DNA of 64,000 bases from Myxococcota bacterium (GCA_039028875.1 JBCCHE010000002.1:5212-69211), one strand, 5' to 3'. Numbered from the stretch's first letter, positions 2,060 through 33,930 are shown. Numbers and translations are program-made. The notes: generated from the letters alone by a model not told the origin.

Positions 2060-2965
2060 ATGACGGACCGCGAACCCATGGCCAAGGACAGGCCGTTTTC
2101 GACCCCCCTCGACAAGGCCGAGCGCCTGGGGATCATCTCGTGCATCCACGGTAACCTCGAGGCGCTCGACGCGGTGATCGCCGATCTCCGGGCACGTGAG
2201 ATCGACGCCGTGCTGTGCCTAGGTGATCTCGTTGGCTACGGTCCGTTCCCTGACGAAACCGTGGCTCGGGTTCGAGCGCTCGGCATCCCTTCGGTGCTGG
2301 GTTGCTGGGACGAAGGGATCGCCCAGGAAAACGAGACCTGCGGCTGCACCTTCATCTCTGAAGAGGAGGGGCAGCTTGGCGCGATGGCGTTCTGGTGGAC
2401 GACCGTGAACGTGTCGGACGACACCAAGAAGTACCTCGGGACGCTTCCGATGGGGATCGGCCTCGATCTTCCGTGCGGTCGCGTGGTCGCCTTTCATGGA
2501 AGTCCCAACAGCACGTCCGAGTACCTGACGGAGTCGACGCACGAGCTGGTGCTCGTCGAGCGCGCGGCGAGCGCCGGCTGCGACATCCTCGTGTGCGGAC
2601 ACACGCACGTGCCCTTCGTCAAACAGGTTGCAGGTACGCTCGAAGTTCGCGCCGAGACAACCGTCAAGGAGCCGATCTATCAGGCCCGTTACGGCGAACT
2701 CGAAACCCCGAGCCTCGTGACGCTCGCCCCGAAGACGATCATCAATGCCGGGAGCGTCGGCGAGCCTCGTCATGGCGGTCTCGCAGCGACCTATGCCATC
2801 CTCGATACGCACTCTGGCGACGTGGAGCTGTGCGAGGTCGAGTACGATGTCGAAAAGACCGTGCACGCTATGCGGGCGCGTGAAGTGCCGGAGACTTTCG
2901 CGGAACGCTTGCTCCATGGGCACGAGCTGACCGGCAAGCACAAGGAAGTCTTCTGTGCCTGCTGA
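2060..2965 (+). CDS. Calcineurin-like metallophosphoesterase (YfcE/MJ0936-type)
   Basis: Motif blocks IISCIHGNLEAL, CLGDLVGYGP, VAFHGSPNS and LVCGHTHVPF are present. The first block has Cys where the canonical D-x-H motif has Asp. The 3' end overlaps the next gene by 11 nt. Confidence 0.8.
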   Translation: MTDREPMAKDRPFSTPLDKAERLGIISCIHGNLEALDAVIADLRAREIDAVLCLGDLVGYGPFPDETVARVRALGIPSVLGCWDEGIAQENETCGCTFISEEEGQLGAMAFWWTTVNVSDDTKKYLGTLPMGIGLDLPCGRVVAFHGSPNSTSEYLTESTHELVLVERAASAGCDILVCGHTHVPFVKQVAGTLEVRAETTVKEPIYQARYGELETPSLVTLAPKTIINAGSVGEPRHGGLAATYAILDTHSGDVELCEVEYDVEKTVHAMRAREVPETFAERLLHGHELTGKHKEVFCAC

Positions 2966-4595
2966 CGTGGCAGGCAGCGTCGTGCTTGTCGGCTTCGAGT
3001 CCGTTGGCAAATCGGCCCTTTTCCGCGGGCTCACCGGGCACGCGGCCGGCGACGAAGCCAACTTCCGGGGCTCGACGGTGGTGTGCCGTCGCTGCCACTT
3101 GAAGGCGTGCGAGTGCGAGCTGGTCGATACGCCCGGGATTCGACTCAACAGCGACAGCGCCGCGACGGCCCTCGCCCTCGAGACGCTTGACGACGCCGAT
3201 ACGGTGATGCTCGTCGTCCGGGCGCCCTACCTTGCCGACGAAGCACAAGCACTTCTTGCGGCACTGCGCCTCGGCCCGAGGCGACTTGCCGTAGCCGTCA
3301 CGTTTACTGACAAAGTCTCTGCAGGACTTTCGTCGGCCATCACGAAGCTCCGCGCGCACCTGGGTGTGCCCGTCGTGGCCCTCGACGCGCGTGAGATGGG
3401 CGCCAAGCGTACAGAGCTCCTCGATGCCATTCGAGGCGCGCGTCCGCCGGCCGACGCCCACGTTGAAGCACCACTCGTTCAGCTCCGCAGCCGTCGGCCG
3501 TCTCGAACGATTTTCGAGCAGCCGACGCTCGGGCCGTGCGTGGCCCTCTTGGCCCTCGTCGGCCTCCTCGCCGTGCCCTTGATGGGTGCGTTCTACCTCG
3601 CAGCTTGGCTTCAACCAGCCGTCGACGCCGTTGCGATTGTTCCCGTCACGCGAGCGCTCAGCGGTACGTGGCCGCCTCTGGCGGCCGTCTTGGTGGGCCC
3701 CTACGGCGTGCTAACGCTCGGGTCCTATTCGTTTCTGTGGGCGTTCCCTGTGGTTCTGCTGTTGGGCGTGACGAGCAGCGTCGCGGAAGAGACGGGCCTC
3801 CACGATCGCGTCACCACGGCGCTCGACCCTTGGCTCCGCCACGTCGGACTCTCCGGGCGCGATCTGGTGCCGGTGCTCACGGGCTTTGGGTGCAACGTCG
3901 TTGCAGTGCTCCAGTCGCGCGCATGCTCGTCCTGTTCGAGAAAGAACTGCGTCAGCCTCGTCGCCTTCGGCAGTGCGTGCAGCTACCAGATCGGCGCGAG
4001 TCTGTCGCTGTTTGGTTCGGCGGGGCGCTCGTGGATGTGCGCGCCCTATCTGTTTGCCGTTTTTGTCGTTGGCCTCGTTCACGTCCGGCTGTGGCACGGT
4101 TCCGTCGCGCACCAGCCCGCGCCTCGACCCGATGAGCGCGCGTACCTGCAGGCACCTTCGGCGAGAGGGGTGTTTTGGCGCGTCGGTGTCGTGCTCAAGC
4201 AGTTTCTCGTGCAAGCCATGCCGATATTCTTGGTTCTATGCGTCGTTTCTGCGCTCATCGACCAGACGAGCTTGATGGCGGGGTTGTCCCAACTGGTCGG
4301 ACCCTGGTTCGGCCTTTTTCACCTGCCCGATGACACCGCCCTTCCCGTGCTTTTCAGCCTTTTGCGCAAAGACGGAATGCTGCTCCTCAACGCCGATAAC
4401 GGGGCCCTGCTCGGCGCACTGTCGGCAGGGCAGCTCTTCGTCGTCGTATACCTCGCAAGCACCTTGGCGCCCTGCCTCGTCACGCTCGCCACCGTAGGAC
4501 GCGAGCTCGGGTGGCGGACCGCCGGTGGCGTTGCGGGACGACAAGCACTGACGAGCGTTGCCAGCGCTTTTCTTTTCAGCCAGTTGGCATGGTGA
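2955..4595 (+). CDS. feoB: FeoB-family GTPase-coupled divalent metal transporter (no feoA seen)
   Basis: N-terminal G domain has G1 LVGFESVGKSALF and G3 LVDTPGI. The polytopic C-terminal part carries the FeoB gate motif LTGFGCNVVAVLQSRAC. At 546 aa it is shorter than E. coli FeoB. Confidence 0.75.
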   Translation: MPADVAGSVVLVGFESVGKSALFRGLTGHAAGDEANFRGSTVVCRRCHLKACECELVDTPGIRLNSDSAATALALETLDDADTVMLVVRAPYLADEAQALLAALRLGPRRLAVAVTFTDKVSAGLSSAITKLRAHLGVPVVALDAREMGAKRTELLDAIRGARPPADAHVEAPLVQLRSRRPSRTIFEQPTLGPCVALLALVGLLAVPLMGAFYLAAWLQPAVDAVAIVPVTRALSGTWPPLAAVLVGPYGVLTLGSYSFLWAFPVVLLLGVTSSVAEETGLHDRVTTALDPWLRHVGLSGRDLVPVLTGFGCNVVAVLQSRACSSCSRKNCVSLVAFGSACSYQIGASLSLFGSAGRSWMCAPYLFAVFVVGLVHVRLWHGSVAHQPAPRPDERAYLQAPSARGVFWRVGVVLKQFLVQAMPIFLVLCVVSALIDQTSLMAGLSQLVGPWFGLFHLPDDTALPVLFSLLRKDGMLLLNADNGALLGALSAGQLFVVVYLASTLAPCLVTLATVGRELGWRTAGGVAGRQALTSVASAFLFSQLAW

Positions 4596-19940: not shown

Positions 19941-21554
19941 TCAGGTGGTCGCCGGCTCATCGAGGAGTTCGGGTTCCCCGGGCGCCAGCGTGGTCTGCTC
20001 GAGGCTCTCTTCGAACCCCGGAAGTCGAGCCGCGGCGAGCCCGAGCAAAAGGGCCGACAGCAGAAAGCCGAGGTCGACGTAAGCGGTGTGACTTGCTTCG
20101 GGGAGCTTGAGCGCCGCAAACGGTCCGATGCCAGTCACCATGAAGCCTATGAGGGGTGCGATGGCGAGCCCGGCCGCCCCCAACCCGAAGAGCAGGCGCA
20201 AACATCGACCGAGGGGCAGGAGCGCGCCGCCGATCATGGTCGCGACCAGCGACCCGAAAAACGCAAGGGTCATCGCCGTCCAAACGCGAGGCCCCTGCGC
20301 GAAACCCCAGGCAGCAATCGTCGCCCCAGCGGCGACTGGCAGCCCTGCGCAGCCTCCTAGGAGCGCACGGGCCACGCGCGCACCCTTCGGCGACCGCTCG
20401 GTGTTTCGTATCGCCCAGAGCCCAAAGCCCAGTCCAGCAAGTACGCAGGTCAGCAGCCCGAGCAGCATCCAAACGAGCTGCGTCGCGAAGCCAAAGAGGT
20501 TTCCGAAGTGAAGTGGCCCAATCCAGCGCAGCACTTCGCCGCCGACGGAGGGCTTGGCGCCGAGGACGGCCTTTTCGGCCAAGAAGCTTCCGTTGTGTCC
20601 GTCGTAGACGAGACCACGATTGCTGAGCGCATAGCCCGGAACGAAGACGCTCACCACCACGTGCGCTTCCTTGCCTCCCCACTCGTTCAACTGAAGTCGC
20701 CCGATCGACGTTCCGGGCGCACGTTGGCGTGCATCATCGATCATGGGCTGCACCACCGCCACCGCCTCTGACTCGGAGACCCCATAGTCGCCCTTGACGA
20801 TTGCCATCATCTGTTCCTGGTCACCCCCGAAGGCGACGACGATCATTACGGGAATCAGGATGGCGCCCGCAAAGCTGAAGAACGCGCCGGTCACCGACAG
20901 AATGAACGTGAAGGGCATGCTCCACGCCCCAATCAGTGTGTGCATATCGCCGAGCCACTGCCGCATGCTCTTGCGCGGCGGCCGAACCAGATTGCCTCGG
21001 CGCGGCCAATGGACGTAAAGCCCGGTCCCGACGAGGAGCAGAAGCAAGATGGCGATGACCCCCGTTAGAAGGAGGCCGAGCTTGCCGTCGACCAGCAGCC
21101 TCACGTGAAGCTGCACGAAGAATCGCTCTAGGCTGCTCCGAGGCTCAGACTTGACGCGGTCGCTAAATGTGAAGCGCTCTGCGCGCAGAATCGCCCCCGT
21201 GGCTGGGTCGATATCTACATAGTCGGCTCGCTTGTCGTCGTCCGGAATCGAGAAAGAGAGCGTGAGCGCCCCGGGCGCGGAGCCAACCCTGATGTCCCGG
21301 GTACCGAAGTCACCTTCGTACTTGGCGGCGAGCGCATCCTGCGCCGTCACGACCGCGCGATCGATGAAGCCCGGGGGTAGATCGGCAATTGAGGGCGCCG
21401 GTCGGTCACGGGACGCCCACCCGTCGAGATCGTGTCCAAAGACGACGAGCGCGCCGGTAAAAAAGACAATCACGCCAAGGAAGGCCGAGGCGATGCCAGC
21501 GGAACGATGGAAAAGGTAGAACACCTTGCGCCTGCCGCTCTGGCGCCGACTCAC
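19941..21554 (-). CDS. PepSY-associated TM-helix protein (PiuB/FoxB-like membrane protein)
   Basis: I place the start at GTG (complement of 21554-21552), overlapping the upstream stop as GTGA. Motifs include FYLFHRSAGIASAFLGVIVFFTGALVVF, MRQWLGDMHTLIGAWSMPFTFILSVTGAFFSF and LRWIGPLHFGNLFG. Confidence 0.75.
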   Translation of the reverse strand: MSRRQSGRRKVFYLFHRSAGIASAFLGVIVFFTGALVVFGHDLDGWASRDRPAPSIADLPPGFIDRAVVTAQDALAAKYEGDFGTRDIRVGSAPGALTLSFSIPDDDKRADYVDIDPATGAILRAERFTFSDRVKSEPRSSLERFFVQLHVRLLVDGKLGLLLTGVIAILLLLLVGTGLYVHWPRRGNLVRPPRKSMRQWLGDMHTLIGAWSMPFTFILSVTGAFFSFAGAILIPVMIVVAFGGDQEQMMAIVKGDYGVSESEAVAVVQPMIDDARQRAPGTSIGRLQLNEWGGKEAHVVVSVFVPGYALSNRGLVYDGHNGSFLAEKAVLGAKPSVGGEVLRWIGPLHFGNLFGFATQLVWMLLGLLTCVLAGLGFGLWAIRNTERSPKGARVARALLGGCAGLPVAAGATIAAWGFAQGPRVWTAMTLAFFGSLVATMIGGALLPLGRCLRLLFGLGAAGLAIAPLIGFMVTGIGPFAALKLPEASHTAYVDLGFLLSALLLGLAAARLPGFEESLEQTTLAPGEPELLDEPATT

Positions 21555-21832
21555 GAAACGAACCTTCCGATCACGGGGACCAGCGCGGCCACGGTGATGG
21601 CGCCCGTCATGATCCACGCGCGACGCCGCCGTTGAGCACCGAGGAGCAGCATAAAGGCCAACGCCCATACGAGCGGAAACGCCACGACCGCGAAGATCAC
21701 GTGATCGATTCGAGCGGGCCCTTCGGGCAGAAACGTCGTCATGCTCGCCGAGACGATGAGCGCGACGACGAACGTCGCCAGGAGGATCAGCACCTCCCGG
21801 AGCCATCGCCGACGTGGGGCTTTGGAGTTCAT
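21551..21832 (-). CDS. Small 3-TM membrane protein translationally coupled to the PepSY gene
   Basis: MNSKAPRRRWLREVLILLATFVVALIV... has three hydrophobic helices. The stop overlaps the next gene's start codon. An alternative start lies at 21871. Confidence 0.5.
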   Translation of the reverse strand: MNSKAPRRRWLREVLILLATFVVALIVSASMTTFLPEGPARIDHVIFAVVAFPLVWALAFMLLLGAQRRRRAWIMTGAITVAALVPVIGRFVS

Positions 21833-21919: not shown

Positions 21920-21953
21920 TTCGGCGAGCGGTCGCCTTGGTTCGGTGAGCGGT
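21920..21953. promoter_or_regulatory. Two 13-bp direct repeats 21 bp apart; candidate LytTR-regulator binding site
   Basis: TTCGGCGAGCGGT (21920-21932), an 8-nt spacer, then TTCGGTGAGCGGT (21941-21953); 12/13 identical. The reverse complement is ACCGCTCGCCGAA. The site lies between the PepSY operon start and the kinase start. Confidence 0.45.
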
Positions 21954-22039
21954 ATCGGCTCCGTGCCTGACCCATGCCGATAGAGAGTGAGCCATCCTAC
22001 CCGTAGCCGACTTCCCGCGTTCATGGGACCCTACGGTCG

Positions 22040-23200
22040 ATGCCGCAACCGTTCTTGTCGAGCGAAACCTCGCTGCTACGCCAGCCACGGTTCTGGCTCG
22101 TCCAACTCGCCGGATGGCTGCTCATCCAACCGCTCTACTTCCGACATCAGATCGAGACGGCGTTCCGAGAAGGACTCGGGAGCCTGGCCGTCCTCCTGAC
22201 GGCATCGAGCTGCGTGTTGGCCATCGCGTGTTCGTCAGGTCTGGCCGCCGTCTATCTAAGGATACCACCGAGCTGGCTGACGGGTGTGAGAGCCATCCCC
22301 GTCGCGCTTGGGCTTTCGCTTCTGGCGTGCGTGCCGTGGGCCGTCGGCATCGAGCTCGTGGCGCGCGCGACCGCGTTTTCTGAAGACGGGGCTGAAGGCT
22401 TTGCCTATCGGTTCTTCTTCATCGGCTCGATCCTCATGGTCTGGTGGAGCGGAGCCTTTCTTTGGCTCACGCTCAGCGCCCGAGTGACGAAAACGCAGGC
22501 GCGCGCCTTGCGCGCCGAGGCGCTCGCTCACGAGGCCAAATTGATGGCGCTCCGCGCCCAGCTCAACCCCCACTTCCTGTTCAACTCTCTCAACTCGGTG
22601 GTCGGTCTCATCGGAACCGATCCGGGGCGCGCGCGCCAAATGGTGCGGGACCTCGCGGGGCTGTTGCGACGTGCCCTCGATTCGACCAAGGCGGAGCTGA
22701 CCACGATCGGCGACGAGCTCGATTTGCTCGCGCAGTACCTTCGATGCGAGTCCGTCCGGTTCCGCGAACGCCTCGAAGTGCGGGTCGACGTCCCCGATCA
22801 CGTTCGGCAGCATGCGATTCCGAGCATGCTGCTGCAGCCCCTCGTGGAGAACGCGATCAAGCACGGAATCAAGGGGACGCGCGCACTAACACTGGTCATC
22901 GTGGGTCGGTTCACGACCGATCGCACCGTGGTCATCGAAGTGCGAAATACCGGCCGTCTCGCGGGTCCGACTGCGCCCCTGCGCACCCCCTCCGCCAGGC
23001 CAGAAGAGGATGACCCGCCCGGGACTGGCTCGGGGCTCCGCATCGTTCGCGAACGGCTCGCGGCGACCTACCCCGAAAGCGGAAAGCTCGACCTGTTTGA
23101 GGACGACGGCTGGGTGGTGGCGCGCGTCAACTACGAACCCGAAGAAGCCGACCCAGCGCTTCCGAGGCTTCAGGCTACGAACGCGCGAGGCGCCGCGTGA
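22040..23200 (+). CDS. LytS/YehU-type sensor histidine kinase (His_kinase PF06580-like + HATPase)
   Basis: N-terminal ~150-aa multi-TM region. The phospho-acceptor region is LRAQLNPHFLFNSLNSVVGLI. ATPase motifs are LLQPLVENAIKHGI and GTGSGLRIVRERL. Confidence 0.88.
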   Translation: MPQPFLSSETSLLRQPRFWLVQLAGWLLIQPLYFRHQIETAFREGLGSLAVLLTASSCVLAIACSSGLAAVYLRIPPSWLTGVRAIPVALGLSLLACVPWAVGIELVARATAFSEDGAEGFAYRFFFIGSILMVWWSGAFLWLTLSARVTKTQARALRAEALAHEAKLMALRAQLNPHFLFNSLNSVVGLIGTDPGRARQMVRDLAGLLRRALDSTKAELTTIGDELDLLAQYLRCESVRFRERLEVRVDVPDHVRQHAIPSMLLQPLVENAIKHGIKGTRALTLVIVGRFTTDRTVVIEVRNTGRLAGPTAPLRTPSARPEEDDPPGTGSGLRIVRERLAATYPESGKLDLFEDDGWVVARVNYEPEEADPALPRLQATNARGAA

Positions 23201-23940
23201 CGCTGAAGGTTCTGGTGGTCGACGACGAGTACTTGGCGCGAGTCGCGCTGATCGATCTGCTTCGTCCCTACGAAAACGTCGACGTCGTTGCCGAGGCCGA
23301 CTCCGTGCAGAGCGCTGCGACGCACATCCTCGAACACGACCCCGACGTCATCTTTCTCGACATCGAGCTTCCCGACGGCAACGGTTTTGACTTGTTCGAC
23401 AGGGTGGACGTCCGGGGACACGTGGTGTTTCAGACCGCTTACGGTGAGCACGCGCTCAGAGCCTTCGAAGTCAACGCACTCGACTACTTGGTGAAGCCCG
23501 CGGAGCCGAGTCAGATCGATCGGGCGCTCGCCCGAGCTCGCAGCGCTTCTGCCGCTAGTGCGGCCAGCGTCGCAGCTACCGCCCTCGGTCCTGAAGATCG
23601 AGTTCGACTGCAAGAGCGCAGGCGCGTTCGGTTCTGTCGTGTTCGCGATATCGCCTACATTCGGAGTGCCGACGACTATGCGGAGGTCCACCTCGCCAAC
23701 GGGGAAGTGGCCCTGGTACCGGAACGACTCCAACACTGGGAATCGCGACTGCCCGACTCCTTCGTGCGCATTCACCGATCGACCCTGATCAACGCAGACC
23801 TGAGCGAGGAGATGCTGCACGAGAATGGGGCGTGGCAGGTCCGGCTTCACGGATGTTCCGATCGACTGACGGTGAGTCGACGTCTCGCACAGCAGGTGAA
23901 GGCCAAGATCCTGGGACGTCGGGGCGAAGGGCTTCGATAG
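23197..23940 (+). CDS. LytR/AlgR-family response regulator (receiver + LytTR DNA-binding domain)
   Basis: GTG start overlaps the kinase stop. Receiver motifs are VLVVDDE, IFLDIELPDGNGF and ALDYLVKP. The LytTR domain is IAYIRSADDYAEVHLANGEVALVPERLQHWESRLPDSFVRIHRSTLIN. Confidence 0.9.
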   Translation: MTLKVLVVDDEYLARVALIDLLRPYENVDVVAEADSVQSAATHILEHDPDVIFLDIELPDGNGFDLFDRVDVRGHVVFQTAYGEHALRAFEVNALDYLVKPAEPSQIDRALARARSASAASAASVAATALGPEDRVRLQERRRVRFCRVRDIAYIRSADDYAEVHLANGEVALVPERLQHWESRLPDSFVRIHRSTLINADLSEEMLHENGAWQVRLHGCSDRLTVSRRLAQQVKAKILGRRGEGLR

Positions 23941-24094: not shown

Positions 24095-24149
24095 ACCGCT
24101 CGCCGAGTGAGGGCGACCGTCTGGCGAAACGACGAGTCGCTTGTCGTCC
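24095..24149 (+). promoter_or_regulatory. Phased direct repeats upstream of the RND operon; candidate LytTR binding sites
   Basis: ACCGCTCGCCGAG (24095-24107) matches the reverse complement of the 21920 repeat at 12/13 positions. ACCGTCTGGCGAA (24116-24128) lies exactly 21 bp downstream and matches 9/13. A third core, CGCTTGTCG, lies at 24138-24146, 20 bp further on. Confidence 0.4.
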
Positions 24150-24213: not shown

Positions 24214-25443
24214 ATGCTGAGACGAGCGAGCCAAGGAAGAACCGGCGCCTCTCACCACAGCCGGAGACCGCGCTCAGGCACAAACGCCTATTCGACGGGT
24301 CGAATCGACGTGAGGTGCCGCGGTTGGCAAGTCGTGCTCTGCGTGGTCGCAGTCGGGTGCGCGGAGCGCGCGCCCGCATCGTCCGAGCCCTCGGCACCCC
24401 CGGTGCATGCGGAACGAGCGGCCATCACCACCGTGGTTCCGGAGTCGATCGCAACGGCCGAGATCCTCGCTTTGCGTGAATCCCTATTACGCGCGGAGGT
24501 GCCGGGACGAGTCGTGGCCGTTCGGGTTGAAGCGGGTGATTCGGTCGAAAAAGGGGACGTTTTGGTGCGCTTGGACGTCGTGCGAACCGAATCGGCGGTC
24601 GCAGCCGCTGGAGCCTCGGTGGCCCAAAGCAAGGCCCGCTTCGAGCAAGCCCAACGTGAGTTCGCGCGAACGGAAGTGCTCGTGAAGGCCGGGGGACTCG
24701 CCGACCAAGCCCTCGACGATGCGAGAAACGAGCTTCGGGTCACCTCCGCCGTGCTCGACGCATCGCGTGCTGATGCCCGCCTTGCAAGACGAGGCCTTAC
24801 CGAGGCCGTGATTCGCGCCCCCTTCAGCGGCACGATCGTCGAGCGACACGTCGAGCTCGGCGAGTACCTAGCGCCAGGCAACGACTTGGTCCGCATTGCC
24901 GACACGAGCGTGCTCAAGGCGCGGGTCCTTCTCGACCCACGTGAGGCCCTCGGGCTTTCGGTTGGCGCGAAAGCCATCGTGGAGGCCTTCGCGCGGCCTG
25001 GCGAGCGCTTCGCGGGTCGGGTCGTCCGGGTGGGCAAAGTCATTGATCCAGACACCCGAAGGCTTCCCGCGGATGTGGAGCTCGACGACACGGAGGGCCG
25101 ACTGCTTCCTGGACTCGTCGGTCGCTTTTGGATCGCCACCGGTCCGCCGCAACCGTGGGTGACTTTGCCGAGGAGGGCCATCTTCGAGCGTTTCGGCCGA
25201 CGACACGTCTACGTCATCGAAGATGGGATAGCACGGCGGCGCGAGGTCTCGCTCGGCGCTCAACGAGACGGGCGCGCACAAATTCGGGACGGGGTTCGCG
25301 CGGGGGAGTGGGTGGTCACCGACGGGATGATGCGCGTCGTCGATGGTGCGCCCATCCGACGGGTACCTGCGACGCACCCGCAGTCACCGCGACCAAGAGA
25401 TGATTCTCTCTCTGGTTCGAGCCGGCGCGCGGACTCGCCATGA
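24214..25443 (+). CDS. RND efflux periplasmic adaptor (membrane fusion protein)
   Basis: Lipoyl-like hairpin LRAEVPGRVVAVRVEAGDSVEKGDVLVRLD, coiled-coil region, then beta-barrel and MP domains. A lipoprotein-like VVLCVVAVGCAE suggests the true start may be the GTG at 24310. The stop overlaps the RND start (ATGA). Confidence 0.85.
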   Translation: MLRRASQGRTGASHHSRRPRSGTNAYSTGRIDVRCRGWQVVLCVVAVGCAERAPASSEPSAPPVHAERAAITTVVPESIATAEILALRESLLRAEVPGRVVAVRVEAGDSVEKGDVLVRLDVVRTESAVAAAGASVAQSKARFEQAQREFARTEVLVKAGGLADQALDDARNELRVTSAVLDASRADARLARRGLTEAVIRAPFSGTIVERHVELGEYLAPGNDLVRIADTSVLKARVLLDPREALGLSVGAKAIVEAFARPGERFAGRVVRVGKVIDPDTRRLPADVELDDTEGRLLPGLVGRFWIATGPPQPWVTLPRRAIFERFGRRHVYVIEDGIARRREVSLGAQRDGRAQIRDGVRAGEWVVTDGMMRVVDGAPIRRVPATHPQSPRPRDDSLSGSSRRADSP

Positions 25444-28400
25444 GTCCGGCCGGGTTCGCGGTCAGACAACCGGTCTTCGTCAACCTCGTCGCCATCTCGA
25501 TGGCGGTGGTCGGAGGCCTGATCTTCTATACGATGGACCGCGAGTCGCTTCCGACCGTACCGACCGGCTGGGGCGGGGTCGAAACGGTCTACGCTGGAGC
25601 ATCGCCAGAAGAGATCGAACGCCTCATCACGATGCCAGTCGAAAACGCCGTCGCCCAACTCGACGACATCGAGGAGATCTGGAGCGAATCCCGGGAAGGC
25701 ATCTCGTGGGTCTACTTCAAGCTCAACCCGGGCGTGACCAACGTACCGCAGGCCATCATCGAAGTCGCCAACGAGGTCAATCGCGTCGATGACCTCCCCC
25801 TCGATGCCGAAAGACCCCACGTCCACGAGTTCAAAGTCGACCGCCCGACGCTATGGGTCGCAGTACGCGGGGATGTCAGCGAGTCGATCGTCAGGCGAAT
25901 CGGAAGAGACCTAGCGGACAAAATCGAACGTCTGCCTGACGTCGCCGGCACCTGGAGACAGGGTGTCCGCGACAGAGAGCTCCGGGTGGATGTCGATCCC
26001 GATCGGCTTGCTGCCTACCGGCTTCCGCTCACCGCTGTCACGGAGGCGCTTCGGCAGCGAGGTGCCAACGTTCCGGCTGGAACCACGGACAACGCGCGAG
26101 GCGATGTCCACTTGATTCGAGGCATGACCCGAGTCGATACAGTCGATGAGATCGAGCGCGTCGTCGTTCGACCGAGCCCGCGGGGTGGTTCGGTCCGCGT
26201 CCGCGACGTCGCAGACGTGCAGGACACCTTCGCCCCGGGCGCGCTCAGCAGCCGGATGAACGGCGAGCCCGCAATCGTGATCACCGTCAAGAAGGATGAG
26301 CAGGGCGACAGCCTCCGAATCAGCGAAAGCGTCCACAGAGTCATCGACGAGTTGGCGCCATCCCTTCCGAAAGGCGTGACGGTTGAAGTCTTTGGCGACG
26401 TCGCGCATTCCGTGAACCGGTCGCTCACCCTCCTCTACGCGAACGCGGCAGCTGGGCTGATCCTCGTCCTCGCCCTGCTCTGGTTCTTCATCGGTGCGCG
26501 AAACGCGACGATGGCGGCGCTCGGGCTGCCTGTATCCCTGGCCGGCGCCATCGCCGCCATGGACGCGATGGGGATCACGATCAACATGGTCTCCTTGCTG
26601 GCGCTGATTCTCTGTCTCGGGATCATCGTCGACGACGCGATCATCATCATCGAGAACATCTACCGACACATGGAGGAGGGGCTCTCGCGCCGAAAGGCCG
26701 CGATCGTCGGCACCCGAGAAGTGTTCTGGCCTGTCGTCTCTTCGACGCTCACCACGTGGGCGGCCTTTTTGCCGATGCTCCTGATGACCGGGACGCTCGG
26801 AAAGTTCTTTGCCATCATCCCGAAGGTCGTTGTGGCCTCGCTGGCCGCTTCGTTGATCGAGGCGATGTTCGTGCTGCCGAGCCACATGGCGGACTTCGGC
26901 AAGCTCGAGCGCCGCCGACAGGATGGCGTTCCTGAGACGCGCGCGCAGCGAATCGGTCGCCGCGTGTTGCTCGCCTACGAACGAACGCTACGCGGTGCCA
27001 TCCAGCACCGGCGGGTGGTGGTCGGCGTCGCGTACGCCCTGTGCATCGGACTTGTCACCGGGATTTACACGACGAAAGACACCGTACTCTTCAATGAGGG
27101 CGACGTCGACATGTTCGACGTCCGCGTCCGGCTACCGACCGAGACCTCCAAAGAAGACACCGAGGCCTTCCTCTCACAAATGGAGGCCCAGATCCTCGTG
27201 CTCGAAAATCCCATCATCGACGATACGTTGGCCGTTCGAGGAATGGTACGAACGCCCAAGGGGACCGAGCGCGGTGACCACACAGGGACGATCTCCGTGT
27301 TCCTCGCTCCGGTGCAGTACCGGGACAGTGGCCGCGCGGGCGAAGATGCCCTCTCGCAGGTCGACGCCCTTTTCAAGGACCTCGTCGGACCCACGAGCCT
27401 CGACGTCGTGGCGATTCGTCAGGGCCCGTCGGGCGACCCCCCGATCACGGTCCGAGTCGTCGGCGACGACTACGACCGCCTGATCGGGCTCGCCGAACAA
27501 GTCCTCGTCGAAATACGAAACCTCCCAGGCACCCGGAACGAACGGCACGACTTCCAGCTCGGCAAAGAGGAACTCAAGGTGACCGTAGACGAGCAGCGCG
27601 CCGCTCTGCATGACCTGACCGCCACCGAGGTGACCGCATGGCTTCGAAGCGCCTTCGGAGCCACCGCCGCGGCCACCCTTCAAATGAACCAAGAAGAGAT
27701 CGACATCGTAGTGCAACTCGATGAGAAGGCGCAGCGCGACGCGGCGACGATCGCGACCCTTCGAATGATCACGGACTCCGGGGCGGACCTCCAATTGCAA
27801 GAAGTGGCGGAGGTGATCCCTGGGCGTGGACCCGGGGTGATCCGCCGCTTCGAACGGAAGCAGGTCGTGACGGTCCGCGCGAACATCGACTCGAACGTGA
27901 CCAACATGGGCGAAGCCAACCGGCGCTTGCAGCGTCGGCTGGCTCCCCTCTTGGCCGCCAATCCAGACGTCGAATTCAAGCTTGCGGGGCAGTTCGAGGA
28001 AGCTCAGGAGTCACTCGACTCGCTGTTCCAAGCGTTCGTCGTGGCGATCTTGCTGATCTACACCATCTTGGCGACTCAGTTTCAGAGCTTCTCACAGCCG
28101 CTTGTCGTCATTACGGCCGTCCCGCTTTCCCTGATCGGCGTCTCAATCGGGTTTTTCCTGGACGGTCGACCGATTAGCTTGATCGCGCTGGTCGGCGTGG
28201 TGGGCCTTGCCGGAATTGTCGTCAACGACTCTCTGGTCCTCGTCGAGTTCATCAACACGAGGCGACGAGGCGGTCTGTCGTTGGATGAGGCCATCGTCGA
28301 GGCCGGGAAACTGCGGGTGCGCCCGATCCTCCTGACCAGCGTCACCACGATTGCGGGCCTCATTCCCGTCGCGCTGGCCATGAGTAGCCTTCCGTTTCTC

Positions 28401-28634
28401 GCGCCGATGGCGCAGGTGGTGGTGTGGGGGCTCGCGTTCTCGACGGCGCTGACGCTCTTCATTGTGCCTTGTCTCTACCGGGTCGACGTCGATGTGTCGG
28501 CGCGGTTGTCATCCACTTTGGCACCTGTGACGCAATGGCTGACCGATCCGGGCGTCGCGGTCGTGGATGACGGTCCCGACGAACACGAATCGCAGGCAGC
28601 GCCGCGGTTCCCGGACCCCGCGAAGGAGGGATGA
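25440..28634 (+). CDS. RND-family efflux transporter permease (AcrB/HAE-type)
   Basis: 1064 aa. It begins FAVRQPVFVNLVAISMAVVGGLIFYTM. It shows a duplicated 6-TM plus large-loop architecture. Other motifs are LLALILCLGIIVDDAIIIIENI and GLAGIVVNDSLVLVEFI. Confidence 0.93.
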   Translation: MSPAGFAVRQPVFVNLVAISMAVVGGLIFYTMDRESLPTVPTGWGGVETVYAGASPEEIERLITMPVENAVAQLDDIEEIWSESREGISWVYFKLNPGVTNVPQAIIEVANEVNRVDDLPLDAERPHVHEFKVDRPTLWVAVRGDVSESIVRRIGRDLADKIERLPDVAGTWRQGVRDRELRVDVDPDRLAAYRLPLTAVTEALRQRGANVPAGTTDNARGDVHLIRGMTRVDTVDEIERVVVRPSPRGGSVRVRDVADVQDTFAPGALSSRMNGEPAIVITVKKDEQGDSLRISESVHRVIDELAPSLPKGVTVEVFGDVAHSVNRSLTLLYANAAAGLILVLALLWFFIGARNATMAALGLPVSLAGAIAAMDAMGITINMVSLLALILCLGIIVDDAIIIIENIYRHMEEGLSRRKAAIVGTREVFWPVVSSTLTTWAAFLPMLLMTGTLGKFFAIIPKVVVASLAASLIEAMFVLPSHMADFGKLERRRQDGVPETRAQRIGRRVLLAYERTLRGAIQHRRVVVGVAYALCIGLVTGIYTTKDTVLFNEGDVDMFDVRVRLPTETSKEDTEAFLSQMEAQILVLENPIIDDTLAVRGMVRTPKGTERGDHTGTISVFLAPVQYRDSGRAGEDALSQVDALFKDLVGPTSLDVVAIRQGPSGDPPITVRVVGDDYDRLIGLAEQVLVEIRNLPGTRNERHDFQLGKEELKVTVDEQRAALHDLTATEVTAWLRSAFGATAAATLQMNQEEIDIVVQLDEKAQRDAATIATLRMITDSGADLQLQEVAEVIPGRGPGVIRRFERKQVVTVRANIDSNVTNMGEANRRLQRRLAPLLAANPDVEFKLAGQFEEAQESLDSLFQAFVVAILLIYTILATQFQSFSQPLVVITAVPLSLIGVSIGFFLDGRPISLIALVGVVGLAGIVVNDSLVLVEFINTRRRGGLSLDEAIVEAGKLRVRPILLTSVTTIAGLIPVALAMSSLPFLAPMAQVVVWGLAFSTALTLFIVPCLYRVDVDVSARLSSTLAPVTQWLTDPGVAVVDDGPDEHESQAAPRFPDPAKEG

Positions 28635-28637
28635 GTC

Positions 28638-30044
28638 GTGCGAAGCTTCCTGACAGTTCAACGATGGCTGCTATGGGCCTGCCTCGCATGCATGCTGTGC
28701 ATAATGACGCCTGTCGCCGCCCAAGACCAGCCCGTGAGACCGGAAGTGTCGCGCGAAAGCCCCCCCTTCCCTTCGGGAGATGACGCAGCGACCCGCGGCC
28801 TGAGATCCCTCTACGTTCCCGGTGGACTGACCTCCGACGAAACGGTCAGACGAACCCTCGCGACGTCACCCGACCTCGAACGCACCCGTGCGCTCGTCGC
28901 GGAAGCCAAGGGCGCTTCTCTTCGGGCGATCGGAAGCTTGATTCCCCGGCTCGATCTCAACGCGTCGTACACACGGTTCAGCCGCGTGTTCCGTCCCCCG
29001 CAGTTCCCGCTCTTCTTGGACAACTTCTCGACCGACGCCACGCTGGGCTACTCGTTGACTGGCTCTCTCGCGGAGGCACTTCCAAGCTACCGCGCCGCCA
29101 AGAAAGACAAAGTCGCCTCGCGACACCAAATCGAGGCCGAAACCAACAACGTCGCATTCTCGGCACGCGAAGCCTACTACGAGTTCGCACGCTCGAAGGC
29201 AGCCCTTGGCGTCGCGCTGAAGACGTTGGAAGAAGCGACTTCGCAACGACAAGAGACCGAATCCTTGGTGGCCGCTGGAGCCGCCCCGCGTGTCGATGCG
29301 ATGAGGACGCAGGCGCAGGTTTCCGCGGCACAGGTATCCGTTTCGCAAGCAGAACTCGCGCTCGCCGTTGCGCGGCGAACCTTGCAAACCCTGATGCATG
29401 TGGACTCGGTGCCAACGCTCGGCGAGGACCTCTCCCGGCCCGTCGTTGGAGTCCCGACCGAGTCACAGGAGGCGCTCGAACAACGCGCGCTCGCCGAGCG
29501 ACCGGATTTGAAGGCCTTGCGGACCGCTGTGCAGGCAACCGAGCATCAAATCAGGGCTGCCCGTGGAGGCGCCGCACCCGACTTGCTGATCACCGGCACC
29601 GCCCAATACATCAACCCGAACCCGCGCGTCTTCCCGAACGAGGCGCGCTTCCAGGCGACCTGGGACGCGGGGGCGTTGGTCACCTGGTCCCCGAGCGACA
29701 CCTTCATCGCCGCCGGCCAGGCGAAGCAGCGAAAAGCCGAGCTCCGTCGTGCGGTCGCCGACATCATCGCGCTCGAGGACGCCATCAAAGTCGAAGTCGC
29801 CGAGGGGTACCATGGCATCTTTCAAGCCGAGGCCGCCTGGCAATCCGCACGAATCGGCCTCCAAGCCGCCGCCGAAACCTACCGAATCCGACGCGCACAG
29901 CTGCGCGCCGGCGCCGTCAACACCACCGACCTCCTCCAAGCCGAGGCCGAACTCACCCGCGCCCGCCTCGACGTCGTCGATTCCGCTATCGGGCTGCGGA
30001 CCGCCAAGGCGACGCTGCTGCGAGCGATCGGGGTGCAGCCTTGA
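28638..30044 (+). CDS. TolC-family outer membrane efflux protein
   Basis: Signal peptide ends at ...TPVAAQD. The sequence has two OEP repeats with long coiled segments (AEAKGASLRAIGSLIPRLDLNASY..., AARGGAAPDLLITGTAQY...). Confidence 0.85.
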   Translation: MRSFLTVQRWLLWACLACMLCIMTPVAAQDQPVRPEVSRESPPFPSGDDAATRGLRSLYVPGGLTSDETVRRTLATSPDLERTRALVAEAKGASLRAIGSLIPRLDLNASYTRFSRVFRPPQFPLFLDNFSTDATLGYSLTGSLAEALPSYRAAKKDKVASRHQIEAETNNVAFSAREAYYEFARSKAALGVALKTLEEATSQRQETESLVAAGAAPRVDAMRTQAQVSAAQVSVSQAELALAVARRTLQTLMHVDSVPTLGEDLSRPVVGVPTESQEALEQRALAERPDLKALRTAVQATEHQIRAARGGAAPDLLITGTAQYINPNPRVFPNEARFQATWDAGALVTWSPSDTFIAAGQAKQRKAELRRAVADIIALEDAIKVEVAEGYHGIFQAEAAWQSARIGLQAAAETYRIRRAQLRAGAVNTTDLLQAEAELTRARLDVVDSAIGLRTAKATLLRAIGVQP

Positions 30045-30070
30045 CCCTGGGAGCCAGCCGTCGACCGCTG

Positions 30071-30099
30071 CCCGCAACTAGCGATTCCCGCAACAGCGA
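30071..30099 (+). repeat. Short tandem direct repeat upstream of the membrane LytTR gene
   Basis: CCCGCAACtAGCGA (30071-30084), tt, then CCCGCAACAGCGA (30087-30099). It ends 37 nt before the ATG at 30137. Confidence 0.3.
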
Positions 30100-30136
30100 C
30101 TGGCCGCGCGGTTGAGGTCGTGGGACGCTCCGCGCG

Positions 30137-31036
30137 ATGACTTCTTTCACCGCGTCGATTCTCTCCCAGCACGAGCCGAGGTCGCTTCTACACCAATCGC
30201 GTTTCTGGGCGGCGCAGCTCGGCGGCTGGCTGCTTGTCGTTCCCTTTTACTTTCGGGATCTGATCCAGGAAGGGCTTCGCAACGGGCTCGTCTTGCTGAG
30301 CGTCACCATGGTGACGACCAGTTGGATCGCGGTCGTGGCCCTCTCGACGGTGCTGGCCGCGGCATACCTCCGAATGTATCCTCACTGGCTCCGTGGCATC
30401 CGAGCGATTCCGGCGGTGCTCGCGTTGTCCTGTGCGGGCGCCCTGCCCTGGACGGCGATGCTCATCTTTCTCCTTCGGAGCGGTCAGTCGAACCCCTCGG
30501 CGTGGGGGGACTACGCCCCGTGGTTGCTGTTCCAGACAACCGTCCTCCTATCGGCATGGAGCGGAACGTTCCTCTGGTTCCTGAGACGCAGCCGCCAGGA
30601 GCCCGGGCCCGCCAGACGTCCGGACGTGGAGGACTCCGCGTCTCGCTGGAGGTCCGACAGCGACGCCACCCAGGGCCGCTGGAGACCAAACGATCGCGTT
30701 TGCCTCAAAGAGGGAAAGCGCATGAAGTTTTGCGTTGTTGGGGAGATCGTGTTCATCCAGGCGGCTGGGGACTACACGGAGATCCACCTGGCTGATGATC
30801 ACGTGGCGATCGTTCGACAGCGGCTCGTGTACTGGGAGTCCCGCCTGCCGGAATCGTTCGTACGAATTCATCGCTCGACGCTCGTCAACCTCGAGCGCAG
30901 CGACGAGCTGGTCTACCTGGACGGCGCGTGGCGTTTCCGTCTCCGTGGGCTTTCGGAACCCGTCGCGGTGAGCAAGCGTTTCGAGCAATCCGTCATCGCC
31001 AAGGTGACCGGTCAAGGGGGCAAGGTCTCGGTTTAG
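30137..31036 (+). CDS. Membrane-tethered LytTR-domain protein (multi-TM sensor-like N-terminus, no receiver domain)
   Basis: The N-terminal ~150 aa are clearly homologous to the N-terminus of the kinase at 22040 (RFW..QL.GWLL..P.YFR, YLR..P.WL.G.RAIP, W.SG.FLW). The C-terminal LytTR domain is IVFIQAAGDYTEIHLADDHVAIVRQRLVYWESRLPESFVRIHRSTLVN. Confidence 0.8.
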   Translation: MTSFTASILSQHEPRSLLHQSRFWAAQLGGWLLVVPFYFRDLIQEGLRNGLVLLSVTMVTTSWIAVVALSTVLAAAYLRMYPHWLRGIRAIPAVLALSCAGALPWTAMLIFLLRSGQSNPSAWGDYAPWLLFQTTVLLSAWSGTFLWFLRRSRQEPGPARRPDVEDSASRWRSDSDATQGRWRPNDRVCLKEGKRMKFCVVGEIVFIQAAGDYTEIHLADDHVAIVRQRLVYWESRLPESFVRIHRSTLVNLERSDELVYLDGAWRFRLRGLSEPVAVSKRFEQSVIAKVTGQGGKVSV

Positions 31037-31044
31037 GTCGAAAA

Positions 31045-31094
31045 CTCGTCGCGGGAAGCCGAACGCTCGTCGCAAGAGGGCTCACGCTCGTCGC
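31045..31094 (+). promoter_or_regulatory. Three direct repeats with exact 21-bp periodicity; candidate LytTR binding sites upstream of lipoprotein pair P3-P4
   Basis: CTCGTCGC occurs at 31045, 31066 and 31087. The extended units are aaaaCTCGTCGCgg, aACGCTCGTCGCAAg and cACGCTCGTCGCAAt. The array begins 9 nt after the LytTR gene stop and ends 147 nt before the P3 ATG. Confidence 0.5.
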
Positions 31095-31240
31095 AATCGA
31101 GTCTCGTGGATGGACCCGCGTGCTAGCGTCCGGCCGCCTGAATGCGTTTCAGGTCATGCGAAAGCAGCGAATCGCCGTAGCGACCAATCGCTCTATCACA
31201 AACGGCACTCTCACGTGCGGCGAAGACAAGGAGTTTCCGA

Positions 31241-32581
31241 ATGCTTGCGAGCGCAGAACGAACAACGCACGGGGGATGGCGACTCATCGCAGCCCTCGGC
31301 TTCGGCCTGGCCATGTTGGGGTGCGGAGACAGCACACCGTCAGGCACGGGCGGCTCCGGAGGCGGCGCAACCGGCGGTTCAGGAGGAGTGGGGGCCTCTG
31401 GCGGAACGGGAGCCTCCGACGGCGGTGGGGGCGCGGGTGGCACGCTCAGCCAAAGCGGCGGAGCTGCACTCTGCAGTCTCACGGGATTCGGGCTTCCGGG
31501 AGGGCCGACGGGGTTCGTCCGCGTCTTGTCCGAGGCCGAGATCGAAGCCGGCGGTGACATCGACGCCACGGACAACGGCATCGAAGTCGGTGGTGGGGTG
31601 TCGTGTGCGGTCTGGAGGAACTCGGTGTATGCCGCGAGCTTTCAAAGCCCGACGATCACGCGCTACGATCTCATCGAAGGGGAGCTCGTCGAGGGTGACA
31701 CCGTGAGCTTCATGAACTTTGGGGTCGTGAGCCTCGCCGGGTTGTCGTCGCAAATTCAGGTCTTCTCCGACACGAAGGCCTACTTTTTCGACCCGCAGTT
31801 CGCACAGATCGTCGTGTGGAATCCCACGACGATGACCACGGTCGAAGCGATCCAGCTGACTGGATTCGACGCGCCGCCAGGGACCGTGCTTTCGCGGGTA
31901 CGGGCCGGACGGATCGACGATCGACTCGTCCTCTGGTCCACGTACGTCGATGACCAAGGGTTTAGTGCCCCAACGAGTGTATTTGCGTTCGTCGATCCGG
32001 AGACCGACGAGTTCGTCACCGACACGGTGGACACCTGCGGAGGTCTGATCAGTGAGTTTGTGACGACCACCAACGGAGACACCTACATTGGATCGAGCGC
32101 CGCCGATGCGATCAATCATGCGCTCGGGTTCGAAGGAACCTTCCCGCCGTGCATCGTTCGGCTGCGGGCCGGGGCGACCGAGGTCGACGCCACGTTTCTC
32201 GGCGACCCGAACGCGCTCACCGGCATCGGCCCCACGGGTGGCCCCCTCGCGGGCTCGGGAGACGCGGGCTTCTTGGTCGCCTACGACGAGAGCACGATGC
32301 CGCTCGACCCACTCCGTACCGGAACCGAACATACGGCGCTCGAGAACTGGCTCGTTTATCAGGTCGAACTCGGGTCGACCACCCCTGGAACACGGGTCGA
32401 GGCGCTTCCCGCCGGCCAGGGCGTCGGCGGAACGACGTCCTTCGACGGCCGCGGCTTCCTCACTCGAACCGCACGTGATTTCAGCGGCACGACCTTCTTC
32501 GACCTCTCGCAGACACCGGTCGAGGAAACCTACCGATTCAACGCCGCCGTCGCACTCTTTGCGAGGCTCGGCGCCGAGTAG
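31241..32581 (+). CDS. Uncharacterised lipoprotein, paralog family member P3
   Basis: Lipobox GFGLAMLGCGD followed by a Gly/Ser-rich linker. Family blocks are TITRYDL, KAYFFDPQFAQIVVWNP, DTCGGLISEF and PCIVRLRAGATEVD. Confidence 0.8.
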   Translation: MLASAERTTHGGWRLIAALGFGLAMLGCGDSTPSGTGGSGGGATGGSGGVGASGGTGASDGGGGAGGTLSQSGGAALCSLTGFGLPGGPTGFVRVLSEAEIEAGGDIDATDNGIEVGGGVSCAVWRNSVYAASFQSPTITRYDLIEGELVEGDTVSFMNFGVVSLAGLSSQIQVFSDTKAYFFDPQFAQIVVWNPTTMTTVEAIQLTGFDAPPGTVLSRVRAGRIDDRLVLWSTYVDDQGFSAPTSVFAFVDPETDEFVTDTVDTCGGLISEFVTTTNGDTYIGSSAADAINHALGFEGTFPPCIVRLRAGATEVDATFLGDPNALTGIGPTGGPLAGSGDAGFLVAYDESTMPLDPLRTGTEHTALENWLVYQVELGSTTPGTRVEALPAGQGVGGTTSFDGRGFLTRTARDFSGTTFFDLSQTPVEETYRFNAAVALFARLGAE

Positions 32582-32700
32582 CGTCGTTGGCAGGACGCGG
32601 TCACTTGCAGACCGGCAACAACGGACGGTTCGGTCGATGACACCGACCGAAAGACCTACGAGCAATTGCAAGTCATTTTCATTAGGCTAGCCTGCTCGAG

Positions 32701-33930
32701 GTGAAATTCGTTTGTATCCTCCTGCTTCTCGGGTTGGCGGCCTGCGGGGATGGCACCGACGCGACCACGGACACCGACCCCGCACCGGATCCCGAGTCCG
32801 ATGCGCAGGCCCAGTATCTCGTCGGGGGTGTCGTTTACGCGCCCGAGGGTCCGTTCGCCTACGGCGTCATCGTGGACGAGCTGACGCTCGACGTCGAAGT
32901 GGACCTCGAAACGTCGGGGATCTTCCCCGGCCTGCCGACCATCGGCTTTCCCGACGAGCCGAATGGCACGTTCTACGTCGGCCTCGTAGAAAGCCCGCGG
33001 ATCATCCGCTACCACGTCGACGAAGAAGGAACACTCACCGAAACGGGCGAGCTCAGCGTACTTCCTTTTGGACAAATCTCTGCCGGCGGATCCATCGTGA
33101 TCATAAACGAGTCGCGAGCCTACTTCTTCAGCGGCCTCAACCTCGACCTCGTCGTGTTCGACCCCACGGAGATGGTGCTGCTCGAGCTCATCGAGCTCGA
33201 CATCAAGACGCCCGAGGGCGGACAGAGCTACTTCAGCTACACGCCCGCGAGGGACGGAGATCGCATCGTCATCACTGCGAGCCACGTCCGCGCCGACGTC
33301 ACGACGAGCCCAAACTCGCAAGCCATCTTCATCGATGCGTTGACTGGCGAGGTCGAGTACGACGACCTCGAAGGATGCGGCGGCTTCGTCGAGCATGCGA
33401 AGGACGCCGAGGGCAACCTCTTCTTCTCCACCTTCCCGCGACAGTCGGCGATGAGGATTGCGGGGTTAGCGGGCGATCCTGCGTGCCCAGGGTGTATCGC
33501 GCGCATTGCGAAGGATGCGTCTCGTTTCGACACACAGTGGATCGACCTGGTGGGCCTTGCCGGTTCGCCCGCCGGATCGCTCGCTCAGGGACCGGGGAAC
33601 ACTTCGTACATCATGGTGTACGACGACGAAGAGACTCCCGTCACCCAAGACAGCGCCCTCATCCTTCCGACGATTCCGAGCTGGTCGTACGCGGCAATCG
33701 ACCTGACCAACCCGACGACGCTCACCCCGGTGCCGGGCCTGCCGACGAGCGCGGGCGTGGTAATCAGCTTCTCGGTCGTCGAGGGTGATGCGCAGACGGC
33801 AACGCCGTTCATCGGAATCTCGCAGGGCGATTTCGCAGGCACTGACCTTTACGACATGAGCGATCCCTCGGCGCCGGAGTTGCGAATGAGGCTGCCGGGC
33901 CTCGCGTCGGGCGCGCTTCGGCTTAGGTAA
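32701..33930 (+). CDS. Uncharacterised lipoprotein, paralog family member P4
   Basis: GTG start; MKFVCILLLLGLAACGD. Family blocks are RIIRYHV, RAYFFSGLNLDLVVFDP, EGCGGFVEHA and CPGCIARIAKDASRFD. Confidence 0.8.
   Translation: MKFVCILLLLGLAACGDGTDATTDTDPAPDPESDAQAQYLVGGVVYAPEGPFAYGVIVDELTLDVEVDLETSGIFPGLPTIGFPDEPNGTFYVGLVESPRIIRYHVDEEGTLTETGELSVLPFGQISAGGSIVIINESRAYFFSGLNLDLVVFDPTEMVLLELIELDIKTPEGGQSYFSYTPARDGDRIVITASHVRADVTTSPNSQAIFIDALTGEVEYDDLEGCGGFVEHAKDAEGNLFFSTFPRQSAMRIAGLAGDPACPGCIARIAKDASRFDTQWIDLVGLAGSPAGSLAQGPGNTSYIMVYDDEETPVTQDSALILPTIPSWSYAAIDLTNPTTLTPVPGLPTSAGVVISFSVVEGDAQTATPFIGISQGDFAGTDLYDMSDPSAPELRMRLPGLASGALRLR

Follow-up and report, generated by a model that had tools for sequence, protein, structure and literature searches.

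In a stretch of 64,000 nucleotides from a Myxococcota bacterium (GCA_039028875.1, JBCCHE010000002.1:5212-69211; hereafter the window, numbered from its first letter), three short direct repeats lie between a gene for a membrane-anchored LytTR regulator and the genes of two lipoproteins, P3 and P4. The locus raises the question of whether these repeats form an operator and, if so, which gene they serve and which protein reads them. Our preferred reading, to which we give a probability of roughly 0.7, is that the array would be a LytTR-type upstream activating operator of the promoter of P3 (probably of P4 as well), with the fused membrane regulator as its most likely binder.

30137..31036, + strand: membrane-anchored LytTR regulator, 299 aa (Pfam LytTR, E = 3.7e-14)
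31041..31053, + strand: unit 1 (distal), AAAACTCGTCGCG; the weakest match to the family 13-mer (matrix score 4.5), core TCGTCGC kept in the related locus L001
31062..31074, + strand: unit 2, AACGCTCGTCGCA; matrix score 13.8, 21 bp from units 1 and 3
31083..31095, + strand: unit 3 (promoter-proximal), CACGCTCGTCGCA; starts 38 nt 5' of TGCTAG, as in related promoters
31241..32581, + strand: P3, DUF4374/XusB-like beta-propeller lipoprotein by family profile, lipobox AMLGC
32701..33930, + strand: P4, lipoprotein paralog of P3 (27% identical, E = 2e-23), lipobox LAAC

Three phased repeats between a LytTR gene and a lipoprotein gene

The 8-mer CTCGTCGC occurs on the + strand at 31045-31052, 31066-31073 and 31087-31094, that is, with a period of exactly 21 bp, twice. 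The LytTR ORF ends in TAG at 31036 with the first CTCGTCGC 9 nt farther on, and the ATG of P3 (31241) lies 147 nt past the end of the array at 31094. Units 2 and 3 share the 13 nt ACGCTCGTCGCAA, which the window contains just twice, at 31063 and 31084, and AACGCTCGTCG is identical at 9 of 11 positions to ACCGCTCGCCG, the unit of two further sites at 21920 and 24095. The coordinates, counts and distances given in a preliminary description made from the DNA alone were all reproduced. At full length, the three units are diverged copies of the 13-mer ACCGCTC(A/G)(C/T)CGAA.

By itself, the 8-mer CTCGTCGC is not enriched in the 64-kb window (13 observed vs 12.5 expected). In simulated sequences (200 of 64 kb each, first-order Markov), exact 8-mer triples at a fixed period between 10 and 44 were expected about 0.005 times per 64 kb, and a triple with a period of 21 never appeared; the phased repeats are real and non-random. 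The only other 8-mer triples in the window were coding tandem repeats at 39957-40156 and one triple at 60756. The former have an 18/15-bp period and lie inside an ORF (38459..42295, - strand) whose product of 1278 aa carries VWD and LamG domains. A terminator, an RNA structure and a slippage repeat were each rejected as explanations of the array: the search between the LytTR gene and P3 gave no terminator, folding supported no structure (z-score +0.95), and Tandem Repeats Finder did not call the array as a slippage-type tandem repeat. The window sequence was present in one of the three DNA metagenome runs listed.

Conservation of the array in related loci

The membrane-LytTR family is small: it comprises 17 clusters, most of which come from Tara Oceans assemblies, and one GTDB Myxococcota MAG in addition. 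A scan of the genome collection gave L005 as the only further full-length relative among 61 loci. The 80%-identical ortholog (L001/L002) is followed by three units with 21-bp spacing, GTCATCGCA, CTCATCGCA and CTCGTCGCA. When the window was compared with L001, 25 of 27 positions were identical in the repeat cores (93%) and 9 of 16 in the spacers between the units (56%), along with 139 of 205 over the whole intergenic region and 39 of 47 from the proximal unit through the -10-like motif. Judged by this alignment, the array is conserved in such a manner that the repeat cores are kept while the spacers drift.

At 41-51% protein identity, arrays still persist between the regulator stop codon and the following gene. 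They were found in L003, L004, L005, L066, L067, L068 (two), L069, L121 (three) and L122, and such arrays are kept in L123, too. Three units at 21 bp occur in L003, where the central unit is CCGTTCGTC; units at 21 bp also occur in L005, L067 and one of the L068 arrays (L068b), and in L066 the array precedes a P3-like gene. The three units of L122 follow a 20-bp period, and in L068a, L069, L004 and L121 steps of 20-21 bp are mixed with gaps of 30-41 bp, approximately whole helical turns. Whether orthologous loci keep a 21-bp phased array had been put forward in the preliminary description as a check of the array, and a phased array between the LytTR gene and the gene of the lipoprotein is indeed kept at orthologous and paralogous loci, with 21 bp in most of them, 20 bp in L122 and 30-41-bp gaps in a few. 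L069 also contains, at 3150-3200 on the - strand, two CTCGTTCGC units just 15 bp apart, adjoining a TGCTAGCAC motif and placed 5' of an operon for a MacB-type pump that diverges from the LytTR gene; the arrangement is of another kind and possibly a repressive one.

Further arrays in the window and a shared operator pattern

A 13-mer matrix was built from 20 sites located on other contigs only, the window and L001/L002 being excluded (consensus ACCGCTCA(C/T)CGAA), and all 21-bp-spaced pairs of the window were scored with it on both strands. The four best pairs were as follows.

21941/21920, - strand: best pair, summed score 38.3
31062/31083, + strand: second pair, summed score 24.0
24095/24116, + strand: third pair, summed score 18.8
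31041/31062, + strand: fourth pair, summed score 18.3

The maxima of 200 null simulations had a mean of 12.9, a 95th percentile of 17.5 and a maximum of 20.5. The top four pairs make up exactly the three site groups (21920, 24095 and 31045) that the preliminary description had linked into one regulon comprising P3-P4, the pump and the PepSY operon; a matrix independent of the window thus lends sequence-level support to that proposal. At 21920 and 24095, too, the sites come in pairs with 21-bp spacing, and they are embedded among the following genes.

19941..21806, - strand: PepSY_TM inner-membrane protein (Pfam PF03929, E = 3e-51)
21920..21953, - strand: third array, ACCGCTCACCGAA then ACCGCTCGCCGAA starting 21 bp later (8-nt spacer); score 38.3 vs a null maximum of 20.5
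22040..23200, + strand: LytS-type histidine kinase (Pfam)
23197..23940, + strand: REC-LytTR response regulator (Pfam)
24095..24128, + strand: second array, ACCGCTCGCCGAG then ACCGTCTGGCGAA starting 21 bp later (8-nt spacer); score 18.8, above the null 95th percentile
24214..25443, + strand: efflux membrane-fusion protein (Pfam)
25440..28634, + strand: efflux RND transporter (Pfam)
28638..30044, + strand: efflux outer-membrane factor (Pfam)

The 24095 array follows the stop of the response-regulator gene (23940) and precedes the efflux pump operon (24214..30044, + strand), with its proximal unit starting 39 nt before TGGTAGTCG at 24155. The 21920 array agrees with the family consensus better than any other site of the window and points toward the PepSY_TM gene; the 38-nt geometry to a TGnTAG motif was sought at this array and was absent.

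Units and promoter motif were also combined into a composite pattern, CGCTCRYCG-N12-CRYTCRYCG-N27/28-TGNTAG, which matched once in the window and in none of 100 shuffles. It matched in five loci of the family and in none of 60 unrelated loci with LytTR response regulators. A scan of JGI metagenomes with the pattern gave 50 matches, mostly coding or chance, none of which had a fused regulator or a P3 homolog. In seven JGI contigs (L075, L097, L098, L111, L114, L117 and L118) the pattern lies upstream of type IV minor-pilin genes, whose products have FimT/FimU-like and PilV-like N-termini. The minor-pilin operon is a target of AlgR, and the occurrence of the pattern at its promoters indicates that this operator/-10 geometry is general for AlgR-like LytTR regulators.

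Candidate regulators of the array

In an AlphaFold2 model (pLDDT 75), the membrane LytTR protein begins with four TM helices (residues 21-154); residues 155-185 form a disordered linker and residues 187-298 a beta-rich LytTR domain, and by Foldseek its C-terminal domain superposes on 3d6w and on AgrA (3bs1/4xqn) with target-normalised TM-scores of 0.72-0.82. In Pfam searches the protein had neither a receiver (REC) nor a kinase domain, and its TM domain, with four helices in the model, matched no family, MHYT included; a PDB sequence search with the regulator returned nothing, and NCBIfam offered nothing specific for the regulator, the kinase or P3. The TM domain is 41% identical to the N-terminal TM domain of the neighbouring kinase (E = 6e-33), and between the LytTR domains of the fused protein and the response regulator identity is 52% and similarity 77% (E = 3e-35), with the common motif RIHRST..N. 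Other members of the family keep a KTQARVLRAEAL-like stretch, which matches the kinase segment ahead of the His_kinase domain. From these alignments, the membrane LytTR protein looks like the neighbouring two-component system fused into one chain that has lost the kinase and receiver domains. Its sensor domain is rare, with 16 clusters among 1.84 billion representatives, and the proteins that carry it measure about 290-320 aa in the fused form and about 390-417 aa in the kinase form.

A conserved leader, (A)TCGTCC..CTAGCAG/TAGAGAGTGAGC..CATGGGACGCTSCCGC..ATG, lies ahead of the regulator genes. It is present at 30078-30139 of the window and again at the kinase gene (21965-22042) and at LytTR genes in L004, L066, L067, L068 and L069, and probably represents their own promoter and ribosome-binding region. 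A 21-bp-spaced pair was not found upstream of the LytTR gene (30045-30136).

With two LytTR proteins encoded near the array, the binder has to be chosen between them. In the family, the recurring order is regulator stop, then array, then target gene, and by this rule the array at 31045 goes with the fused protein and the one at 24095 with the response regulator. Moreover, at least 10 loci have an array right after the stop of a fused regulator, mostly with no two-component system in view. Both observations speak against the alternative that the phosphorylated response regulator (23197..23940) is the main binder at 31045 and that the membrane LytTR protein acts as a competitor, decoy or modulator. 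We regard that alternative as unlikely, yet it has some evidence on its side. Since the two DNA-binding domains are 52% identical, both regulators could bind the 31045 array. In L123, a P3-like gene adjoins a kinase/regulator pair, without a fused regulator, and carries ACCGTTCGTCGCA followed by ACCGTTGGTCGCA starting 21 bp later together with a Fur-like box; L123 also contains a second two-component system with an array right after its regulator stop. Because the site variants are not sorted by regulator type, as exemplified by ACCGTTCGTCGCA at the two-component-system-adjacent promoter of L123, cross-binding is plausible. The idea that a CGCA site variant had co-evolved with the DNA-binding domains of P0001/P0002 was rejected, as TCGTCGCA is found in the two-component-system-adjacent L123 promoter and in an L121 promoter as well. 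By gene order, the fused membrane regulator is the binder that we favour.

A predicted activator-dependent promoter of P3

A generic sigma-70 scan gave no canonical promoter ahead of P3, and a promoter of that type was rejected. When ten regions were aligned on a common TG(N)TAG motif, the distance from the start of the proximal 13-mer to TG was 38 nt, or 39 nt in some loci, and the same 38-39-nt rule holds in L121 (three promoters), L122 and one promoter of L123. In the window, this alignment defined the following elements.

31102..31107, + strand: -35 slot, TCTCGT; a poor match to TTGACA, positioned from the geometry
31121..31129, + strand: extended -10-like motif TGCTAGCGT (TGnTAGnnT); at a fixed distance in the 10 aligned promoters and in L121, L122 and L123, and identical in L001
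31229..31234, + strand: ribosome-binding site of P3, AAGGAG, within the stretch TCCGAATGCTTGC conserved in L001

The layout in the window is thus a 9-bp repeat, 10 bp, a 6-bp -35 slot, 13 bp and then TGnTAGnnT, and the same geometry (9-mer, 10 bp, -35 slot, 13 bp, TGnTAnnnT) was found again in about 15 promoters of related contigs. A poor -35 element is what is expected of an activator-dependent promoter, and the empty sigma-70 scan fits a weak -35. We therefore predict, solely from conservation, an activator-dependent P3 promoter with a transcription start near 31136. The preliminary description had left it between an own promoter of P3-P4 and read-through from the LytTR gene at 30137; the fixed 38-39-nt spacing between the array and the conserved -10-like motif indicates that P3 is most likely transcribed from an activator-dependent promoter of its own and not by read-through alone. 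As there is no terminator between the LytTR gene and P3, read-through could contribute.

The missing terminator would also suit a second alternative, in which the array is a repressor operator or roadblock that blocks read-through from the LytTR gene, or represses P3 in the way that CoxC acts at PcoxB. CoxC is likewise a membrane-bound LytTR protein and represses via three direct repeats (PMC11347149). The operator of CoxC, however, overlaps the -35 element, whereas about 10 bp separate the array in the window from the predicted -35 slot, as is typical for the sites of LytTR activators and for the promoters of the LytTR Regulatory System (LRS), and the combination of a weak -35 with an extended -10 fits dependence on an activator. 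Since the array precedes the -35 slot and does not cover it, a repressive role is disfavoured, and we consider it improbable. That the repeats are a chance occurrence or the non-functional remnant of a local 21-bp duplication is hardly credible, for although there are just three copies, the first of them degenerate, and Tandem Repeats Finder is silent on them, such a triple is scarcely expected in a window of this size, the cores are conserved across orthologs with diverged spacers, and motif and geometry are found again at many unlinked promoters.

Putative target genes and the iron theme

As single sequences, neither P3 nor P4 was assigned to a family by Pfam. A profile built from 11 members of the P3 family matched DUF4374 proteins (E = 4e-8) and XusB (9hqe, 1e-4) in the PDB, and also chains of the YncE family or named 'surface layer protein', which we take to be BtuG-like beta-propellers; many P3 homologs have precomputed PF14298 matches. 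The two lipoproteins, which the preliminary description called uncharacterised, are instead DUF4374/XusB-like by the family profile and are probably siderophore-binding lipoproteins. The PepSY_TM protein is a putative ferric-siderophore reductase. In Bacteroides, XusA (TonB-dependent transporter), XusB (DUF4374 lipoprotein) and XusC (PepSY protein) import xenosiderophores (PMC13142918).

The genes that recur beside regulators of the family encode DUF4374/XusB-like lipoproteins, PepSY_TM proteins, a TonB-dependent receptor (L069) and efflux pumps. L066, L067 and L120 likewise contain PepSY_TM genes. The pumps are of the RND type in the window and of the MacB type in L069, and the pump of L005 is probably of the RND type, as judged from ORF size only. 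No TonB-dependent transporter was found among the window genes examined, and one is present in L069. L120 has at least four XusB-like genes and a PepSY_TM gene; at about 2960-3080, a run of N (assembly gap) with duplicated flanks breaks an apparent XusB-like coding region upstream of two more XusB-like genes.

Fur-box-like elements lie just 3' of the -10 motif in several related promoters and match the Fur consensus at 13-17 of 19 positions (17/19 in L005 and in an L067 XusB promoter, 14/19 in L003 and L066), each being the top match in its own locus. Their positions are 10961 in L005, 3057 in L067, 10995 in L003, 1741 in L066 and about 3395 in L123. Near-consensus Fur boxes right after the predicted -10 suggest that these promoters are under dual control, by a LytTR activator and Fur as a repressor. 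In the window, the corresponding position is occupied as follows.

31139..31156, + strand: degenerate palindrome TGAATGCGTTTCAGGTCA, at the Fur-box-like position of related promoters; a Fur function is doubtful

Between the -10 motif and the ATG of P3, the best match to the Fur consensus was 11/19 (31225), with none on the palindrome; a Fur box in the P3 promoter of the window, at 11/19 or less vs 13-17/19 in the orthologs, was rejected.

The P3-P4 intergenic region contains, at 32662-32693, a Fur-box-like element GCAATTGCAAGTCATTTTC (12/19) that resembles those of L069 and L066 and overlaps a possible TTGCAA-16-TAGCCT promoter just before the GTG of P4, suggesting that P4 may have its own iron-regulated start. 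Just upstream of it is a perfect 8-bp hairpin formed by TTCGGTCG (32629-32636) and CGACCGAA (32644-32651).

Taken over the regulator family, an iron/siderophore theme is well supported; at the window locus itself, it is plausible.

Proposed mechanism

The mechanism that we infer is one of activation; it builds on the repeats with their conservation and constant spacing, on the neighbouring genes and on the homologies of the protein domains. Each check proposed in the preliminary description that could be made by computation spoke for its interpretation, which the comparative evidence thus supports. Each unit would consist of a 9-bp core plus flank, repeating every two helical turns, and the array would end 10 bp before the -35 position of a promoter with a weak -35 and an extended -10, TGCTAGCGT, which would drive P3 and probably P4 too, two surface lipoproteins of DUF4374/XusB-like type. 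The most likely binder would be the protein encoded directly upstream, a four-TM protein with its DNA-binding domain on a linker of about 30 residues. A membrane or periplasmic cue, plausibly tied to siderophore/iron uptake, would trigger this regulator, whereupon its LytTR domains would fill the in-phase sites and bring in RNA polymerase. From the like array after its own stop codon, the paralogous two-component system would drive the efflux pump, and the PepSY_TM gene would be served by the third array.

A broader evolutionary proposal is more speculative, and we offer it as a possibility that we would not yet call probable. A small clade of marine Myxococcota may have collapsed a LytS/LytTR two-component system into a one-component, membrane-tethered activator beside an intact system of the parental type, by joining the four-TM sensor and the start of the signalling helix of the kinase directly to the LytTR domain of the response regulator. 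Both forms would read the same 21-bp operators after their own stop codons and, together with Fur, would constitute a dual-input circuit for a regulon of Xus-like siderophore piracy and efflux outside Bacteroidota. Control of Xus by a LytTR regulator is, to our knowledge and in our literature search, not described.

Significance and comparison with known systems

The array is most likely a phased operator of the LytTR type, the general kind of which is known, and it goes with an uncharacterised variant of the membrane-tethered LytTR regulators. Regulators of this type have so far had a single characterised prototype, CoxC, and the present locus would add a second type of sensor, an activator-like operator layout and a defined set of targets. 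It also provides a natural side-by-side pair of a two-component system and its fused one-component derivative, with a common sensor, DNA-binding domain and operator type, which could help to find out what signalling gains from phosphotransfer. Siderophore-type uptake modules of DUF4374/XusB and PepSY_TM are extended to marine Myxococcota, and the operator consensus together with the fixed distance to the -10 could be used for regulon prediction in uncultured marine Myxococcota genomes.

Among known systems, the LRS promoters have 9-bp repeats, ACCACTTAC or ACCGCTTAG, separated by 12 bp; the -35 follows after about 10 bp, and TGnTAnnnT often after 13-14 bp more (PMC6193735, Tables 2 and 3). The array in the window resembles those of HdrRM and BrsRM in its 9-bp repeats (ACCGCTCAC or ACGCTCGTC), its 12-bp spacer and its distances to the predicted -35 slot and extended -10-like motif. 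It differs in having three repeats and in its place, since the LRS autoregulate from repeats 5' of their own operon, whereas the array lies 3' of the regulator gene and before another target. Furthermore, LRS consist of a small soluble LytTR protein and a separate membrane inhibitor, whereas in the window one polypeptide of 299 aa carries both the TM domain and the LytTR domain.

Canonical LytTR sites are 9-bp repeats 10-13 bp apart, and operators with three of them are on record for RcoM and for CoxC, the prototype of membrane-bound one-component LytTR regulators (PMC11347149). Like CoxC, the regulator in the window has an N-terminal TM sensor fused to a C-terminal LytTR domain, and like those of CoxC and RcoM, its presumed operator has three direct repeats with 12-13-bp spacers. 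The sensor of CoxC, however, is a 7-TM MHYT domain for copper/CO, to which the 4-TM domain in the window is unrelated, and CoxC represses by overlapping the -35, whereas the array is placed like an activator site.

AlgR-type sites have a CCGT(T/G)CGTC-like 9-mer as their core. That of the AlgR site is CCGTTCGTC (PMC4064291), which agrees with the window unit ACGCTCGTC at 7 of 9 positions and with the central unit of L003 at 9 of 9. The two-component system in the window, with a LytS-type kinase and a REC-LytTR regulator, resembles AlgZ(FimS)/AlgR of Pseudomonas aeruginosa, and the composite pattern retrieves minor-pilin promoters as well. In contrast to AlgR, the regulator adjoining the 31045 array has no receiver domain and a rare sensor domain, the REC domain being found in the response regulator at 23197..23940, and the targets in the window are XusB-like lipoproteins, PepSY_TM and pumps, not alginate or pili.

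Compared with XusABC of Bacteroides (PMC13142918), the window belongs to a member of Myxococcota rather than Bacteroidota, has no adjacent TonB-dependent receptor, and matches XusB remotely, at the profile level only. What the two have in common is the combination of DUF4374/XusB-type beta-propeller lipoproteins with a PepSY_TM protein, and the likeness extends, in related loci, to a TonB-dependent receptor in L069 and Fur-like boxes in several promoters.
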